Notes under the pieces: model-generated | The model's database searches: none | The model's input: the letters and a program-made list of their open reading frames with translations, nothing else | What the model was told of the DNA's origin: nothing | Origin: a virus | Strand: one strand, 5' to 3' | UHGV virus genome: UHGV-0070058 | Length of the DNA stretch: 38,021 nt | Made by a program: the position numbers and the translations under genes | Shown: positions 4,895-21,193 of the stretch, one piece after another | How positions within the stretch are numbered: position 1 is the stretch's first letter | How the letters are laid out: every line of letters begins with the position of its first letter

Positions 4895-5185
4895 TTAGTG
4901 ATTCAGGCCGTTACCGCGTCCGTCGAGAAAAACTTCCACGAGCAAATCACGGGTATAAGTGCGCTCGATGCCGCGATGCAGATATAGCCGTCCGCGTAAA
5001 TTAGCTGATGCAGTCCAGGTACCATCTTTGTGTTTGACCAGCATTCCTGGCATGACCGCGCTGCGATTAACGGTCTGCGTTCCGTAATGTTGATGAACCA
5101 TAAAAACTCCTGCCCGTAAGCTGGGCTGCTGAACATATAGAGACTTCTGCGCGTATTCAGGCGGTGGATGGCCGCCGGTTGTCAT
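4895..5185 (-). CDS. Hypothetical protein in the kil/cIII/N position of the early-left operon
   Basis: 96-aa ORF with GAGG Shine-Dalgarno upstream; first gene downstream of the presumed pL leader; not arginine-rich and not N-like. Confidence 0.45.
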
Positions 5186-5379
5186 AACTAAGCCGCCTCG
5201 TTGAAGCGACTAAGGTATGAAATGTTGAGTTGATTTCAGCTGGTCACACCGACGTTCACGCGTCCGTTTCACCCCTCGCACTCCCCGGAGCCTGCCGAAA
5301 TTCAAGCTGCGGATCTAAGCGGTCATCGCAACGGTGAATCAGGTGGTTGCCGTATCGTTGTGTTGTTGCGACATGGTAA

Positions 5380-5500
5380 TAATAGCCATTGCTATTGGTG
5401 GTATCAATACTTATAGCTATTGATTGATGTGTTTTGATATTAACTGTTTGATAGCAAAAAGAATTAATTTTGTGACTTGCATCGCATAGCGATAACTGAA
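5380..5500. promoter_or_regulatory. Putative OL/pL operator-promoter region
   Basis: AT-rich non-coding stretch at the left boundary of the immunity region containing ATTGCTATT-type motifs shared with the cI-cro intergenic region, plus palindromes TCAATActtatagcTATTGA and ATCGCATAGCGAT. Confidence 0.4.
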
Positions 5501-5576: not shown

Positions 5577-6440
5577 TCATTTCGCATCTACAATAAATAA
5601 CCTGTTTATCTGGCCTTTTTTAACAGTAGCCTTTGCGGTTATAGTGAATACTGCAGATGGATCACCTTTGGTTGATATATATGCACTAAGAGCTCTAATA
5701 TACGGGTTATTCTTCTTTCCTGCAGCTGGATCGCTAATTTCAGCAGTGATTCTCTTTTTTGAGTCATCACCATCTAAAATTATTTTAGCTGTCATATTTT
5801 GTGCATCAAATTCTGTAAGAAAAGCACGATACTCACGAAGACCGAGAACTTCATCATCATCAAGCCTATCAATTTCAGCTTTATCTCTCTCGTTAACTTT
5901 TAGAAGGCAGCCGTCAACATTTGTTGCAACACTTATCTGATCGCAAGTATTACCAATAGGTGATACTGCCTGCCTTACAGAGGGGCGAAGCTCTACAGCC
6001 ATTCGGTCAATCAAAGAGATCAACTTATCAATGGTTCCAGCATCCTTGTTTCCTAGTGCCTCTATGGCCTTTTCAAGTGACTGCTGCAAAGCTTTCATTT
6101 CATCTTTCTTGTTAGAATTTCTCGCAAAAATATATTGTAGTATTGCGCCAAGTATAGTTGCGGCGATCCCCGAGAACAACTGGTTCTGAGTGGCGAAGTT
6201 AAGAACTGCTTCAAGAGTAAAGCAGTTAGCTTTTGCTTCGCGTGCGTAAACCTTAACTTCCTGATAATTAATGTATTTACTATATTTTTGTGTAACAGAG
6301 AAAGAAGCTGCTGTTGAGAGAACTTTAGAAAAACCCTTTAGGGATTCTCCTAGGCAGTTCAAATCTATTTCATGATTTAAAGCATCTTTTCCGTCATACC
6401 TAAGAGAGATTTTTATATCCTGTAAAGCGTCACAATCCAT
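5577..6440 (-). CDS. Unknown membrane-anchored protein in the rexAB position; candidate prophage-encoded exclusion/abortive-infection factor
   Basis: 287-aa ORF, markedly AT-rich; 66 bp downstream of and co-oriented with the repressor gene; one hydrophobic segment [19 protein letters not shown] at about residue 100; no resemblance to RexA/RexB recognised. Confidence 0.6.
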
Positions 6441-7309: not shown

Positions 7310-7537
7310 ATGACAAATCAAACCATTCAACTCGCAATCAGTATTACAGGTAGTCAAAAACGACTGGCAGATCTATGCGGTGTAGCCCAACCCACTGTTT
7401 GGCGTTGGCTACACGGTGGCGGAATTGATGCCCGCTATGTAATGAAAATTGTCTCAGCCACTGGTGGAAAGATTAAACCAGCAGATATTCGTCCCGACCT
7501 CGCACCATTGTTTAACGCGAGTAATTCTGCCGCCTAA
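7310..7537 (+). CDS. cro: Cro-like HTH repressor
   Basis: ATG at 7310 with AGGA Shine-Dalgarno 9 nt upstream; HTH segment QKRLADLCGVAQPTVWRWL; divergent from cI. Confidence 0.8.
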   Translation: MTNQTIQLAISITGSQKRLADLCGVAQPTVWRWLHGGGIDARYVMKIVSATGGKIKPADIRPDLAPLFNASNSAA

Positions 7538-7561
7538 ACTGCGGCGTTAACTGATAAGGCA

Positions 7562-8107
7562 ATGACTATGCAACCACTTACATACCAACAGACTAGCGGA
7601 TTTAGCCCGACTGCGGTGATAAATCGTTCTCAAACAAAACAAGCTCCAGGCCACGAAAAAATCCGTGATGCCGTCCGCGCCTGGTCGGCTGCAGATAATC
7701 AGGATGTTGTTGCCGCACTCATTGTGAATGAGTATCGGGAGCAGGGCGGCGGCACCATCGATTTCCCTGATGATGTCAGCCGTGCACGCCAGAAGCTGTT
7801 CCGCTTCCTCGATAACAAATTCGATTCTGAAAAATACCGAAATAACGTGCGTGAACTGACCCCGGCAATTCTGGCGGTACTACCGCTGGAATATCGCGGT
7901 TACCTGGTTGAGCAGGATAGCTTTATGGCTAGGTTGGCTGAAATGGAAAAGGAACTCAGTGAGGCAAAACAGGCTGTCATTCTCAACGCACCACGCCACC
8001 AGAAACTGAAGGAGATGAGTGAAGGCATTGTGTCGATGTTTCGAGTGGACCCGGATCTGGCTGGTCCATTGATGGCGATGGTCACCACCATGCTGGGGGC
8101 AATATGA
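7562..8107 (+). CDS. YdaT-family protein (DUF1019) occupying the cII position
   Basis: Segments EYREQGGG and LTPAILAVLPLEYRGY resemble Rac-prophage YdaT as recalled; follows a Cro-like gene as ydaS-ydaT does. Confidence 0.6.
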   Translation: MTMQPLTYQQTSGFSPTAVINRSQTKQAPGHEKIRDAVRAWSAADNQDVVAALIVNEYREQGGGTIDFPDDVSRARQKLFRFLDNKFDSEKYRNNVRELTPAILAVLPLEYRGYLVEQDSFMARLAEMEKELSEAKQAVILNAPRHQKLKEMSEGIVSMFRVDPDLAGPLMAMVTTMLGAI

Positions 8108-16999: not shown

Positions 17000-17377
17000 A
17001 TGCGTGATATTCAGATGGTTCTTGAGCGTTGGGGAGCGTGGGCGGCTAATAATCATGAAGATGTGACCTGGTCGTCCATTGCCGCCGGTTTTAAGGGATT
17101 AATTCCTTCAAAAGTAAAATCTCGCCCACAATGTTGTGACGATGACGCGATGATCATTTGCGGGTGCATGGCCCGTCTGAAAAAGAACAACAGCGATTTG
17201 CATGATTTATTGGTGGACTATTATGTCGGCGGCATGACTTTTATGGCGCTTGCACGTAAGCATGGGCGATCTGATTGTTGGGTTGGCAGGATGCTCCAGA
17301 AAGCTGAGGGCGTAGTGGAGGGTATGCTGATGGTGTTGGATCTCCGATTGGAGATGGATGCTGATTGTTCGAAATAA
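17000..17377 (+). CDS. Q: Late-gene antiterminator Q (QuuD/82-type)
   Basis: ATG at 17000 with GGAG Shine-Dalgarno; protein ([26 protein letters not shown]...) matches DLP12 QuuD; Cys-rich zinc-binding segment. Confidence 0.9.
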
Positions 17378-17475
17378 TTAAAGGAAAAGTTGCTGTCTGA
17401 TTGTCATTAGTCTAACATTTTAAATGTTGGAATCGCAACGTAGTTATTATCATATAACAGCTTGTTTCCTGATTT
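17378..17475 (+). promoter_or_regulatory. Putative late promoter pR' / qut region
   Basis: Positional: non-coding stretch directly downstream of Q and upstream of a strong terminator; promoter hexamers not confidently assigned. Confidence 0.4.
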
Positions 17476-17505
17476 AGCCAGCCTCCCCAAAGGCTGGTTT
17501 TTTTC
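17476..17505 (+). terminator. tR'-like rho-independent terminator
   Basis: Hairpin CCAGCCT-CCCCAA-AGGCTGG followed by TTTTTTT. Confidence 0.75.
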
Positions 17506-17532
17506 TAATAAGTATTATTTCGGGTAGGGATT

Positions 17533-18057
17533 TTATTGTTTAACCCATAATAATTCATTGACATTGAATCCCAACTTTTGAGCGGTTCGCGCATAGTCTG
17601 CTTTTACTTTATCTGGAATAGTTGGGGTCCTTGCCAGAATCCATAGGTATTCTCTGTTCGGACCACTGACAAGAGCATACTTATACTCATCATCCAGTTT
17701 GATTACATTATAGCCACCATAGAAGGGGCCAAAAAACGAAACCTTCAACGCTGCAGTTTTAGTATCTCCAGTAAAGTATGCTTTACCTTCGCTCTCGCTC
17801 CATTTATTTTTCGTTGGATCGTATCCACGGTTAAGTACACGAATCCCTCCGTCGTTCCGTTTTCCATAAGTAGCGCTGACCTGTTCCAGACCACGTTCGA
17901 ACCGGTTCTCGAGGCGAGCTATTTCATACCATTTTCCGAGGTAGCGGTTGGCGTCAAAATTTGTAATCGGCTGCACACCTTTAGGTGGTGTCGGGGCCTT
18001 ACATGCTATAAGAGTGAAAGAGAGTGCAATGCCAGTCAACACAGGCCATAACTTCAT
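17533..18057 (-). CDS. blc: Outer-membrane lipoprotein lipocalin (Blc-like)
   Basis: 174 aa; lipobox LIAC; motifs NFDANRYLGKWYEIAR and KVSFFGPFYGGYNVI match E. coli Blc as recalled. Confidence 0.85.
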   Translation of the reverse strand: MKLWPVLTGIALSFTLIACKAPTPPKGVQPITNFDANRYLGKWYEIARLENRFERGLEQVSATYGKRNDGGIRVLNRGYDPTKNKWSESEGKAYFTGDTKTAALKVSFFGPFYGGYNVIKLDDEYKYALVSGPNREYLWILARTPTIPDKVKADYARTAQKLGFNVNELLWVKQ

Positions 18058-18249
18058 AATAAATCCTGTACTTTTGATAGTTGAGAGTAAGTATGAAAGA
18101 TAGATGATTACGACCGATCACTTAAAGAACTTTCATACTATATTAGGAATAGTCCATAACAGAAAAATTGTCAGTGATGACGCCAGAAAGGCAATTTATT
18201 CCGTGCACTACACAGTTTATGTGTTAATGAATTAGTCAAGGGGGAGAAT

Positions 18250-19209
18250 ATGATAAAAAAACCTGTGATTGGAATCAGCGGTTGTTTGGCCGGTTCTGCT
18301 GTTCGTTTTGATGGTGGTCACAAAAGAGCTGACTTTTTAATGGACAAATTAGTGGAATGGGTAACATTCAGACCAGTATGTCCGGAAATGGCTATAGGGC
18401 TGCCAGTTCCGCGTCCTGCTCTACGTCTTGTGCGCTCGACGCAAGGAAATATACGGATGTGTTTCAGCTACGACCAGAATGAGGATGTGACAGAGAGAAT
18501 GACAGAGTTTAGTCGTTCTTATATGGACAAATTAAAGGATGTATCGGGGTTTGTGGTTTGTGCTAAATCTCCCAGCTGTGGCATGGAGCGCGTGCGTGTC
18601 TATGATGAAAATGGTAATCGAGGTCGTAAAGATGGAGTGGGACTATTTACGAGCACTTTGATGGAAAAGTTTTCCTGGCTACCGGTTGAAGAGGATGGGC
18701 GATTACATGATCCAGTGCTTCGTGAGAATTTTGTTGAAAGAGTTTTTGCTTTGCATGAGCTCAATCACCTTTACAAGGAGAAATTATCAAGAAGAGAGTT
18801 ATTAGCTTTTCATAGTCGTTATAAGCTTCAGTTGTTGGCGCATAGTCAGGCAGGCTATAAAGATATGGGACCATTTGTGGCTGCAATACACGAGTGGGCG
18901 GACCTTGAATCATACTTTGAGGTGTATCGTGATAAGCTGATGGCGATTCTCAGAAAACCTGCATCACGTAAAAATCACACGAATGTGCTGATGCATATAC
19001 AGGGGTATTTTAGTAACTACTTAAGTACACGCCAGCGTAAAGAGTTGAGTGAGGTTATACTTAACTATCGTTCTGGCACATTGCCTCTTCTTGCGCCGTT
19101 GACTCTGCTGAAGCATTATCTGGGTGAGTATCCTAATGATTACTTGCTTACACAGAATTACTTCGATCCCTATCCGGACGAACTGGCTCTAAGACTGATG
19201 GTAAATTAA
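18250..19209 (+). CDS. DUF523/DUF1722 (YbgA-like) two-domain protein
   Basis: 319 aa; N-terminal Cys-containing DUF523-like region (GISGCLAG...CPE...SPSCG), C-terminal YbgA-like region; GGGAG Shine-Dalgarno. Confidence 0.6.
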   Translation: MIKKPVIGISGCLAGSAVRFDGGHKRADFLMDKLVEWVTFRPVCPEMAIGLPVPRPALRLVRSTQGNIRMCFSYDQNEDVTERMTEFSRSYMDKLKDVSGFVVCAKSPSCGMERVRVYDENGNRGRKDGVGLFTSTLMEKFSWLPVEEDGRLHDPVLRENFVERVFALHELNHLYKEKLSRRELLAFHSRYKLQLLAHSQAGYKDMGPFVAAIHEWADLESYFEVYRDKLMAILRKPASRKNHTNVLMHIQGYFSNYLSTRQRKELSEVILNYRSGTLPLLAPLTLLKHYLGEYPNDYLLTQNYFDPYPDELALRLMVN

Positions 19210-19560
19210 TTGTATGCAATATCATCCAAAAGGATGAGTTCCTGCATGCAGGATATTTACAATCGTAAAAACTACACTATGATACCCAGAGTGTCAGTTT
19301 GTATAAAAACTCTGTTTACGCTGAAGAAACCATTGAGATGCAACTTAAAGTTGGTAAACATGTCAGTCAAAATATATAATATTATGATTCCACGCAGCTA
19401 TATATAATATAACAGATTGGTTTAATAATTTGTCTTTGTGAGTTAAATACATAATTTTATACTTGTGATGCAATGAGATTTTCCTTATTGTTGAACTGGC
19501 GAATATTGATTTTCCACCTATACTTACCTGGTGTAACCCCAATGATATCAGGTGGATAAT

Positions 19561-20291
19561 ATGCCATACATATGTTCTATCATTTTGGTGTTGAACTCGT
19601 TTGATGTCCGAATTGGTAAAGAAGATATTTTGTTTAAAAAAGGAAGTGCTGTTCTCATTGATTACAATTTAAAAGATTTTTTTCACCAAATATAGATCAT
19701 GTAATGATCGTAGATGTTGAAGAGAAAACAGTTAATGATTTCTTTAAAAGCAACACACTCTCACCTTTTTCTGTAAGAAGGTTTTATCCGGCATACTTGA
19801 TGGTGGAATGTGAAGATTTTTCATTGTTAAAGAACTTGATTGCATGCTTGAATTGTGATGGCAGAACTGTGGATTTTGTTAGAAATCAAATATCACTTGC
19901 ATGTCTTGCTATCTTATCTTCAGAGAAAATAGTGCAAAGTTTTTTATTTGGATGTCTTAATAGTTTAGGAAGTAAAGTTAAGGCTATTATTCACACGGAT
20001 ATATCTGCAGCATGGAGACTTTGTGATATATCTTCAAGACTGTATCTGAGTGAAAGTCTGTTAAAAAGAAAATTAAAGCACGAAGGCTTATCATTTAGTA
20101 AGTTAATTCTTGAAGAGCGAATGGTGATGGCGGAAAGGTTATTAAGCTACAATTTATATTCTGTTGGAAAAGTTGCTGAGATATGCGGTTATGAAAACAC
20201 GTCATATTTTGTAAGTGTTTTCAGAAGATATTTTGGTGTTCCTCCCCATCAATATTCATCAAGATTTTTTTTAGAAAAAGAAATGATGTAA
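19561..20291 (+). pseudogene. appY: AppY-like AraC-family regulator, split by a frameshift near 19662-19695
   Basis: N-terminal 45 codons (MPYICSIILVLNSFDVRIGKEDILFKKGSAVLIDYNLKDFFHQI, ATG 19561) resemble the AppY N-terminus; the C-terminal AraC HTH domain (19704-20291) is in a different frame; the frames overlap around a T7 homopolymer (19675-19681). Confidence 0.6.
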
Positions 20292-20353
20292 CGTGATGCG
20301 TTTTAATGATTTTGTGATTTTCGTATTTGATAATTGTATGATGCTTTCAGCTA

Positions 20354-20383
20354 CGCCAGAATAATCGCTGGCGTTTTTCTTTT
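20354..20383 (+). terminator. Rho-independent terminator downstream of the appY-like gene
   Basis: Hairpin CGCCAG-loop-CTGGCG followed by TTTTTCTTTTT. Confidence 0.55.
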
Positions 20384-20480
20384 TGAATAGATGTTCAAGC
20401 CTTACGCTAATGTAACTTCTATACCTTTCCCTCTTCGTTCCGAACCGTGTACACCATCCGTTATTTGCGGAGGTGAGGCT

Positions 20481-20696
20481 ATGAAATCCATGGACAAGTT
20501 AACAACGGGCATTGCCTACGGCACCTCCGCAGGCAGTGCTGGCTACTGGTTTTTACAGTGGCTTGATCAGGTCAGTCCATCACAGTGGGCTGCTATTGGT
20601 GTGCTGGGAAGTCTGGTTCTGGGCTTCCTGACTTATCTGACAAATCTGTACTTCAAAATCAGAGAAGACAAGCGTAAGGCTGCGAGAGGTGAATAA
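20481..20696 (+). CDS. essD: Holin (EssD/phage-21 S-like) with dual-start motif
   Basis: ATG at 20481 with GGAGGTGAGG Shine-Dalgarno; MKSMDKL dual-Met start; two hydrophobic helices; charged C-terminus; matches DLP12 EssD. Confidence 0.9.
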
Positions 20697-21193
20697 TGTC
20701 GCCATCATTACGCAAGGCTGTTGCAGCTGCTATTGGTGGTGGGGCTGTTGCCATAGCGTCTGTGCTTATCACTGGTCCGAGTGGTGACGATGGTCTGGAA
20801 GGTGTCAGCTACATACCATATAAAGATATCGTTGGCGTATGGACTGTATGTTACGGGCACACCGGAAAAGACATTATGCTCGGTAAAACGTATACCGAAG
20901 CAGAATGCAAAGCCCTCCTGAATAAAGACCTTGCCACTGTCGCCAGACAAATTAACCCGTACATCAAAGTCGATATACCGGAAACAACGCGCGGCGCTCT
21001 TTACTCGTTCGTCTATAACGTGGGCGCAGGCAATTTCAGAACATCTACTCTTCTTCGCAAAATAAACCAGGGCGATATCAAGGGCGCATGTGACCAGCTA
21101 CGTCGATGGACATACGCTGGCGGTAAGCAATGGAAAGGCCTGATGACTCGTCGTGAGATTGAGCGTGAGGTCTGTTTGTGGGGGCAACAATGA
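20696..21193 (+). CDS. SAR endolysin (T4-lysozyme-like GH24 with N-terminal signal-anchor-release domain)
   Basis: 165 aa; Gly/Ala-rich N-terminal hydrophobic segment [16 protein letters not shown]; catalytic E-8aa-D-5aa-T triad ([16 protein letters not shown]); start overlaps the holin stop (TAATG). Confidence 0.9.

Follow-up and report, generated by a model that had tools for sequence, protein, structure and literature searches.

Where does an AT-rich block of three genes, lying between the antitermination gene Q and the lysis genes of a prophage, come from, and what might it do for the phage or its host? The question is raised by UHGV-0070058, a virus genome of 38,021 nt (the window in what follows, on whose scale coordinates are given) that is a complete DLP12-type lambdoid prophage of Escherichia coli. 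The block contains a lipocalin gene, a gene for a fusion of the DUF523 and DUF1722 domains, here called rudS, and an AraC-family regulator gene. A preliminary description made from the sequence had interpreted them as a stress- and envelope-related conversion module. The answer that we hold to be probable is that a lipocalin-rudS module was captured without its regulator and stands together with an AraC gene put out of frame by slippage, the whole forming a moron cassette between Q and the holin gene (the Q-S slot).

The DUF523/DUF1722 protein is RudS

This protein had been considered the least characterised of the three and of unknown function, a statement that has to be reversed: by sequence it is RudS, a [4Fe-4S] tRNA 4-thiouridine (s4U) desulfidase, and a 93% identical orthologue has been assayed (PMC11417400). 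Profile searches assigned its N-terminal residues 7-149 to 2-thiour_desulf/DUF523 (PF04463, E 7.9e-40), a family that Pfam now names "2-thiouracil desulfurase", and its C-terminal residues 192-309 to DUF1722 (PF08349, E 2.2e-40). It also matches the TudS structure 6Z92 (E 1.8e-4), and its C-terminal half is 49% identical over 152 residues to YbgA of E. coli K-12. Fusions of TudS and DUF1722 constitute the RudS proteins, which are tRNA 4-thiouridine desulfidases (Jamontas et al., NAR 2024, PMC11417400).

Among the enzymes assayed was RudS_vir, gp66 of phage 1H12 (H3V29_gp66) (PMC11417400), and the window protein is 93% identical to it over all 319 residues, with the same TudS-DUF1722 architecture. 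Cys12, Cys44 and Cys110 of the window RudS are at the positions given for RudS_vir and RudS_ST. In RudS_KT the catalytic residues are Glu51, Arg60, Ser111 and Ser113, and their mutation abolished activity (PMC11417400); Glu46, Arg55, Ser107 and Ser109 of the window protein, located by a constant offset from the cysteines, are shared with RudS_vir as well. All these positions, cysteines included, were invariant in an alignment of 11 sequences, the window protein and ten enterobacterial homologues. Every RudS variant reduced tRNA s4U when expressed in E. coli (PMC11417400), and s4U removal by the window RudS is predicted from the activity measured on RudS_vir. In 1H12 rudS is likewise found between a Blc-like lipocalin gene and an AraC-type gene in the interval from Q to holin. 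The window allele differs by 8% DNA divergence and sits in an argU/DLP12-type prophage next to a frameshifted regulator. E. coli has been described as a species without RudS that has just the DUF1722 protein YbgA (PMC11417400), whereas the present allele family is found in about one fifth of the complete E. coli genomes.

The lipocalin and the chromosomal relatives of the pair

The minus-strand gene had been said to resemble chromosomal blc. Its family is indeed that of Blc: it scored 313.8 bits against the NCBIfam Blc subfamily NF007786 (cutoff 267) and aligned end to end with the E. coli Blc structures (E 1e-67 to 1e-69; 6.7e-69 for 3mbt). The N terminus, ...SFTLIAC18-K as read from the sequence, contains the lipobox [LVI][ASTVI][GAS]C followed by Lys at +2, not an inner-membrane retention residue, what would fit an outer-membrane lipoprotein. 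Family, length class and lipoprotein signal are thus shared with E. coli Blc (b4149; 1QWD, 2ACO, 3MBT). It is not a copy of that gene, however. Identity to K-12 Blc is 60%, compared with 74-82% to the lipocalins encoded divergently upstream of rudS in other Enterobacteriaceae (77% in Serratia rubidaea), and its partner is rudS while that of blc is ampC. By these comparisons the window lipocalin is not an orthologue of the ampC-linked chromosomal blc and belongs to a rudS-syntenic lipocalin group.

Chromosomal RudS homologues of 319 amino acids, 70-76% identical to the phage protein, occur in Citrobacter, Klebsiella, Enterobacter, Serratia, Salmonella and others, and we surveyed the context of rudS in 80 species-representative chromosomal loci of Enterobacterales. 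In 50 species rudS was directly upstream of the photolyase gene phr (RudS 55-63% identical to that of the phage), an arrangement that E. coli retains as ybgA-phr. In 13 species it was the last gene of a cluster coding for SnoaL, SDR (short-chain dehydrogenase/reductase), amine-oxidase, DUF1365, CFA-synthase (cyclopropane-fatty-acid synthase), DUF2878 and DUF3833 proteins (RudS 70-76%). In the Citrobacter and Klebsiella versions of this cluster, the gene between DUF2878 and DUF3833 (loci L017-L020, about 4932-5460) codes for a secreted, conserved protein of 174-175 amino acids without Pfam match; it was considered as a lipocalin and rejected, since it resembles neither the window protein nor Blc.

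A further 13 species have a divergent gene for a 174-aa lipocalin before rudS, usually with a MerR/MlrA-type regulator gene between them (RudS 69-74%); loci with all three genes occur in Enterobacter, Leclercia, Lelliottia, Raoultella, Buttiauxella and Serratia rubidaea. Order and orientation are those of the phage, lipocalin on the minus and rudS on the plus strand. The phage copy differs from these loci by the lack of the MerR gene, a lower GC content and the unrelated AraC gene appended to it; none of the 80 chromosomal loci has an AraC gene beside rudS or the lipocalin gene. In Kluyvera cryocrescens the lipocalin-rudS gap is only 112 nt and contains no MerR gene, like the 192 nt of the phage. 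In Pseudomonas a cluster of similar content (phrB, SDR, a flavin-dependent (FAD) oxidoreductase and the CFA-synthase-like UfaM) is light-induced under the MerR-family regulator LitR. As far as comparison of loci can tell, the best reading of the phage pair is that of a captured chromosomal module, linked to light or near-UV stress and deprived of its regulator. What stands of the conversion module first described is that the block is accessory prophage cargo with a Blc-like component. Its theme points to near-UV or light stress and tRNA, since the lipocalin belongs to the rudS-syntenic group, rather than to anaerobiosis or stationary phase.

The cargo slot

Inspection of the ORFs (open reading frames) from Q to the lysis genes confirmed the three frames described before, of 174 (minus strand), 319 and 195 codons, and the profile searches found the families proposed for them (Lipocalin_2; DUF523 with DUF1722; HTH_18/HTH_AraC). 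The block is flanked by Q and by a P21-type holin gene followed directly by a phage lysozyme gene (Pfam; Table 1), and coincides with a dip in GC content, 0.32-0.43 over 17501-20500 against 0.45-0.52 in the flanks and early region and 0.55-0.62 in the structural genes. The AT-rich intergenic DNA and the Q-S position noticed previously are both confirmed.

Table 1 Features of the cassette and its borders in the window
Feature	Coordinates	Strand	Description	Evidence
Q (antiterminator)	17000..17377	+	left edge of cargo site	Pfam Phage_antitermQ, E 2.5e-51
Hairpin, intrinsic-terminator-like	17476..17499	+	9-pair stem + TTTTTTT, just 3' of Q	terminator scan
Lipocalin gene	17533..18057	-	Blc-family outer-membrane lipocalin lipoprotein, 174 aa	Pfam Lipocalin_2 (PF08212), E 1.9e-43
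Divergent intergenic region	18058..18249		192 bp, lipocalin/rudS, presumed promoters	90% identical to 1H12 allele
rudS	18250..19209	+	TudS(DUF523)-DUF1722 fusion, 319 aa	Pfam
AT-rich spacer	19210..19560		upstream of regulator; GC 0.32-0.36	58% identical between two phage alleles
AraC/XylS regulator gene	19561..20291	+	AppY/GadW/YdeO/PatE clade, frameshifted pseudogene	243 codons when repaired
Homopolymer T7	19677..19683	+	T8 in intact alleles; frameshift site, slippage hot spot	alignment
Hairpin, terminator-like	20353..20374	+	ends block, upstream of holin; kept in 1H12	terminator scan
Holin gene essD	20481..20696	+	right edge of cargo site	Pfam Phage_holin_2_1, E 1e-34

A 3.15-kb segment including the block was 100% identical in the chromosome of E. 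coli M114, where it is inside a full lambdoid prophage beside tRNA-Arg and fimZ, the DLP12 site. There the Prokaryotic Genome Annotation Pipeline (PGAP) annotates Q at L001 19701-20078, equivalent to window 17000-17377, and essD at L001 23182-23397. In comparison with K-12 DLP12, the integrase segment of the window was 99.8% identical and the segment from ybcN to Q (quuD) 94.9%, up to 17359 where homology stops. It picks up again at 20470 with essD-rrrD (85%), and nohD is 98.6% identical. The full prophage in M114, the DLP12 flanks and the fixed position between Q and holin confirm that this is prophage cargo and not chromosomal backbone. In the corresponding gap K-12 DLP12 has nmpC disrupted by IS5 (nmpC::IS5), indicating that the block fills an exchangeable cargo slot inside the prophage. 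With its location between Q/tR' and the holin, its deviant GC, a terminator of its own and an alternative content in K-12, the 3.1-kb block (about 17360-20470) is in our judgement probably a moron cassette of the Q-S slot made of two parts of different origin.

In this slot, past Q/tR' and ahead of the holin, DLP12 carries nmpC and Stx phages carry stx. The genes of the present block and their presumed benefit differ, and one of them, the lipocalin gene, runs opposite to the late transcript. The hairpin just after Q, kept also in phage 1H12, is by its position a putative counterpart of the lambda tR'. A scan of 16900-20800 against Rfam at permissive E-values gave only sub-threshold chance matches, with no known RNA element in the AT-rich spacers. 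At the right border, the holin gene has a longer mechanical ORF of 101 codons (20391-20696, from the ATG at 20391) than the 71 codons of the PGAP essD from 20481; the longer version would start 17 nt past the hairpin that ends the block and is probably unused.

The regulator gene and its T tract

The third gene had been presented as an AppY-like regulator. It does belong to the AraC clade of AppY, GadW and YdeO, but it is no closer to AppY than to the others and is a frameshifted pseudogene. The ORF at 19704-20291 (195 aa) is the 3' remainder of a gene extending over 19561-20291, read from an internal ATG. When aligned to its intact counterpart in phage Lambda_2G7a, it lacks one base in a run of T; the frame with T7 stops at the TAG at 19693-19695, the frameshift being located after codon 41, and in M114, where the sequence is identical, the PGAP annotation is likewise "frameshifted". 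An uninterrupted frame of about 240-250 codons including the N-terminal domain is not present in the window regulator. The 3' part retains the C-terminal double helix-turn-helix (HTH_18 E 6.5e-15, HTH_AraC E 1e-11). With one T put back, the predicted product has 243 amino acids and 98% identity to the intact protein cluster P0001; this repaired version is 32% identical to AppY, 32% to YdeO, 34% to GadW, 22% to YbcM and 54% to ECs_0287 of strain Sakai. It reached none of the NCBIfam equivalog cutoffs, the best being YdeO (105 bits against a cutoff of 348). Orthology to the AppY of DLP12 is not supported by these values, 32% identity being no better than with GadW or YdeO. Besides, AppY is located at the far right end of DLP12, outside the Q-S slot.

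ECs_0287 is an AraC regulator at the right end of the Sakai prophage Sp1. A review locates patE (z0321) on OI-8, and ECs_0287 is probably PatE, judged from the Sp1/OI-8 position and the review rather than from a verification by sequence. The prophage regulators AppY, PatE and PsrB activate the acid-resistance genes gadE/hdeA, and by analogy an intact allele would most likely act in acid resistance through gadE/hdeA. With AppY (DLP12), PatE (OI-8/Sp1) and PsrA/PsrB, all lambdoid-prophage morons, the window gene shares clade and size, an N-terminal M-x-x-x-C-S-[VI] motif and the C-terminal double helix-turn-helix. It differs from these acid-resistance regulators in being frameshifted and in occupying the Q-S slot instead of the prophage end.

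The missing base is in a slippage-prone tract. Five RefSeq genomes taken across the identity range had either T8, with an intact coding sequence, or T7 or T6, with a gene that PGAP calls frameshifted. In a sample of 60 evenly spaced genomes out of the 583 RefSeq genomes carrying the window allele, 28 had the in-frame length and 32 were shorter by one or two bases, a share probably inflated by over-sampled clinical clones. Among 80 loci from IMG/VR there were 46 with T8, eight with T7, two with T6 and one with a substitution that extends the run and leaves the frame unchanged; 10 of these 57 T-tract alleles are out of frame. Over the 3.1-kb cassette the out-of-frame alleles fell into six haplotype groups (at ≤3 single-nucleotide polymorphisms, SNPs). 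Several of these resembled an in-frame haplotype more closely than they did one another (4 SNPs separate the window group from the in-frame L104, and 14 from L139), indicating several independent slips. Two RefSeq genomes and one IMG/VR contig have the window haplotype together with its T7, which makes a private sequencing error unlikely, although a homopolymer error could still, from sequence alone, account for the missing base. In the 1H12-type allele the run is interrupted by a C (TTTTCTTTT) and the gene is intact and stable.

These data bear on the possibility that the block is a stress and envelope module run by an AppY-like regulator, which would reprogram anaerobic, stationary-phase or acid-resistance genes of the host in the lysogen, with the Blc-like protein as an envelope-stress effector. 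The clade of the regulator, its 54% identity to the probable PatE of Sp1, the action of AppY, PatE and PsrB on gadE/hdeA and the abundance of intact T8 alleles, together with a ratio of non-synonymous to synonymous substitution rates (dN/dS) of 0.27 between alleles, all speak for it. Yet the window regulator is frameshifted after codon 41, so that it cannot be taken to regulate as AppY does; its identity to AppY is just 32%, and it approaches no NCBIfam equivalog cutoff, the YdeO score being less than a third of its own. The gene is also the dispensable part of the cassette, out of frame in the alleles just counted and missing or interrupted in further loci where the lipocalin and rudS genes stay intact, and no AraC gene accompanies rudS or the lipocalin gene on the chromosomes surveyed. 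We consider this possibility unlikely.

Prevalence, integrity and selection

The block was found in 1157 of 5426 complete E. coli genomes (21%), 988 of them at a coverage of at least 80%, and in 12 phage records that include the isolated phages 1H12, the Lambda_ev series and IdasGreatGrand. Almost all of the 80 IMG/VR prophage contigs have it flanked by the same Q and holin genes. All 80 loci had a full-length RudS and 79 a full-length lipocalin (the remaining one lies at the end of a contig), whereas the regulator was out of frame, interrupted or absent in several. The pair is the conserved core of the cassette and the regulator its expendable part. In the IMG/VR loci L165, L167, L170, L175, L176, L182 and L160 the AraC gene is displaced, partial or absent next to intact lipocalin and rudS genes, and in L170 the holin gene begins about 0.9 kb past rudS.

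Between the window and 1H12 alleles (with the regulator in its repaired form) dN/dS was 0.08 for the lipocalin gene, 0.11 for rudS and 0.27 for the regulator, compared with 0.11 for Q and 0.03 for the lysozyme gene. Purifying selection thus acts on both genes of the lipocalin-rudS pair. As a whole, the block persists as two alleles about 10% diverged.

Could the cassette nevertheless be decaying cargo, tolerated in a recombination-prone slot and at present useless to phage and host? The window and many other genomes have the regulator out of frame, the insertion sequences IS1, IS2, IS3 and IS911 are found within the block in several genomes, with one lipocalin gene truncated by IS1, and the K-12 slot contains a disrupted nmpC, all as hitch-hiking would predict. 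But the dN/dS values of the lipocalin and rudS genes are equal to or below that of Q, both proteins are full length in practically every IMG/VR locus, all the catalytic residues are retained, and two diverged alleles persist in a block present in 21% of the complete E. coli genomes. We regard decay of the whole block as very improbable.

In RefSeq the four insertion sequences are frequent within the block in other E. coli genomes, and the lipocalin gene cut short by IS1 is that of strain M9682-C1 (L013). The cassette is carried by lambdoid prophages with differing downstream modules, trkG (Rac-type), iss/bor and ybcV (DLP12-type) (module coordinates L013 4762-5302, L016 4653-4946 and L012/L014 5118-5301), suggesting that the segment from Q through the cargo to the lysis genes moves between prophage backbones by recombination.

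Proposed mechanism and expression

Returning to the captured module, the scheme that we propose starts from a chromosomal locus with divergent lipocalin and rudS genes separated by a MerR-type gene, which a phage would have acquired without that regulator. RudS would carry a [4Fe-4S] cluster on Cys12, Cys44 and Cys110 and, with Glu46, Arg55, Ser107 and Ser109, convert the 4-thiouridine of tRNA to uridine, the DUF1722 domain holding the tRNA. Because the E. coli chromosome has the DUF1722 half (YbgA) only, the prophage would restore an s4U-lowering activity. The growth delay caused by ultraviolet A (UVA) is s4U-dependent and relieved by RudS, and overexpression of RudS_KT made it about 45 min shorter (PMC11417400). 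Less s4U would accordingly mean less UVA-triggered s4U8-C13 cross-linking, growth delay and stringent response, and this is the benefit to the lysogen that we infer. The lipocalin would be exported as an outer-membrane lipoprotein, with a presumed role in handling damaged or lyso-lipids under the same stress. In lysogens the pair may be expressed from putative promoters in the 192-bp divergent region free of the usual MerR control, so that s4U would be lower and the cell would have another Blc-type lipoprotein. In the lytic cycle, polymerase modified by Q would presumably read through the hairpin downstream of Q and transcribe rudS and the regulator gene in sense and the lipocalin gene in antisense. 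Acid-resistance promoters would be the targets of an intact regulator; that of the window is inactivated by the T8-to-T7 slip.

The lytic transcript suggests another explanation, in which antitermination by Q would give high levels of RudS that strip tRNA of s4U, and late translation would not be slowed by UV cross-links when the prophage is induced in sunlight. The common direction of Q, rudS, the regulator gene and the lysis genes, the hairpins after Q and before the holin, the arrangement fixed in at least 77 IMG/VR loci and in virions (1H12, the Lambda_ev phages and IdasGreatGrand) and the requirement of s4U for the UVA growth delay that RudS relieves (PMC11417400) are all in line with it. 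Against it, the lipocalin gene is antisense to this transcript and an outer-membrane lipoprotein would be of no obvious use just before lysis. A terminator of its own and AT-rich upstream regions are rather expected of independent expression in lysogens, and removing s4U after cross-linking would presumably not repair the cross-links. We find a primarily lytic function doubtful.

Several observations weigh against the proposed capture of a light-stress module. RudS_vir desulfidated tRNA less than the other RudS proteins despite good expression, and had the shortest lag on free 4-thiouracil (PMC11417400), so that tRNA may not be its preferred substrate in vivo. DNA identity of the phage pair with any sampled chromosomal locus was just 65-73%, too low to mark one of them as the donor. 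No MerR remnant was found in the window by tblastn (the best match, E = 0.16, is inside the AraC helix-turn-helix). Nor did the cassette contain the class II LitR operator TRTACA-N12-TGTAYA at ≤1 mismatch; at two mismatches there were 2 matches against 1.9 expected. Retention of a LitR-type operator by the phage is therefore not supported, and the operator is also rare in the chromosomal lipocalin/MerR/rudS loci (2 of 16). Promoter-like matches in the block numbered 13, compared with 10.0 ± 3.1 in shuffled sequences, and no promoter is claimed from them: the divergent region has weak sigma-70-like matches only, and the two best in the spacer upstream of the regulator (10/12) are at 19256-19283 and 19351-19380. 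Finally, the functional link between lipocalin and RudS is drawn from synteny in related genera, which may reflect shared ancestry.

A more ambitious version of the capture would make lipocalin and RudS a single near-UV and photo-oxidative defence unit, with an envelope arm and a tRNA arm, lost by E. coli and re-delivered by prophages without its MerR repressor, constitutive in lysogens, the T8 tract being a phase-variable contingency switch of the regulator across E. coli lineages and not a site of simple decay. At present we would treat this as speculative and give it little credence.

Other accessory genes of the prophage

The prophage has a second cargo site between the replication gene P and ybcN/ninB, where K-12 DLP12 carries ybcK-ybcL-ybcM. 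In the window it contains a gene of about 1300 codons (10071-13982, plus strand), whose product is, according to PGAP, an inverse-autotransporter (intimin/invasin-like) beta-domain protein. Convergent to it (14019-15062, minus strand) is the gene for a BD-FAE/alpha-beta hydrolase whose N terminus, …MSVGSC, looks lipoprotein-like. In the immunity region PGAP identifies, in the identical strain, a DUF7946 protein by the CI-like XRE repressor (5577-6440, minus strand) and a YdaT-domain "toxin" gene after the Cro-like gene (7310-8107, plus strand), both with possible accessory or defence functions.

Implications

The three-gene block was already contained in deposited phage genomes and its RudS already assayed, the window contributing a new allele. 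Literature searches for the cassette as a unit (prophage with lipocalin and YbgA; DUF1722 with prophage) found nothing relevant beyond the RudS paper. The chromosomal lipocalin-MerR-rudS origin, the prevalence in E. coli and the recurrently slipping T8 tract appear not to have been written up. The general picture of the Q-S morons is not changed by this cassette.

With about one fifth of the complete E. coli genomes carrying a prophage rudS, the s4U content, the UVA growth delay and the synergy of UVA with ultraviolet B (UVB) could vary among isolates with their prophage content. Such differences are relevant to disinfection by sunlight or UV and to the use of s4U as a sensor of near-UV. The conserved synteny of lipocalin and rudS is a testable lead on the function of Blc-type lipocalins, and the slippery T8 tract provides natural on/off alleles for asking what a regulator of the PatE/AppY clade controls.

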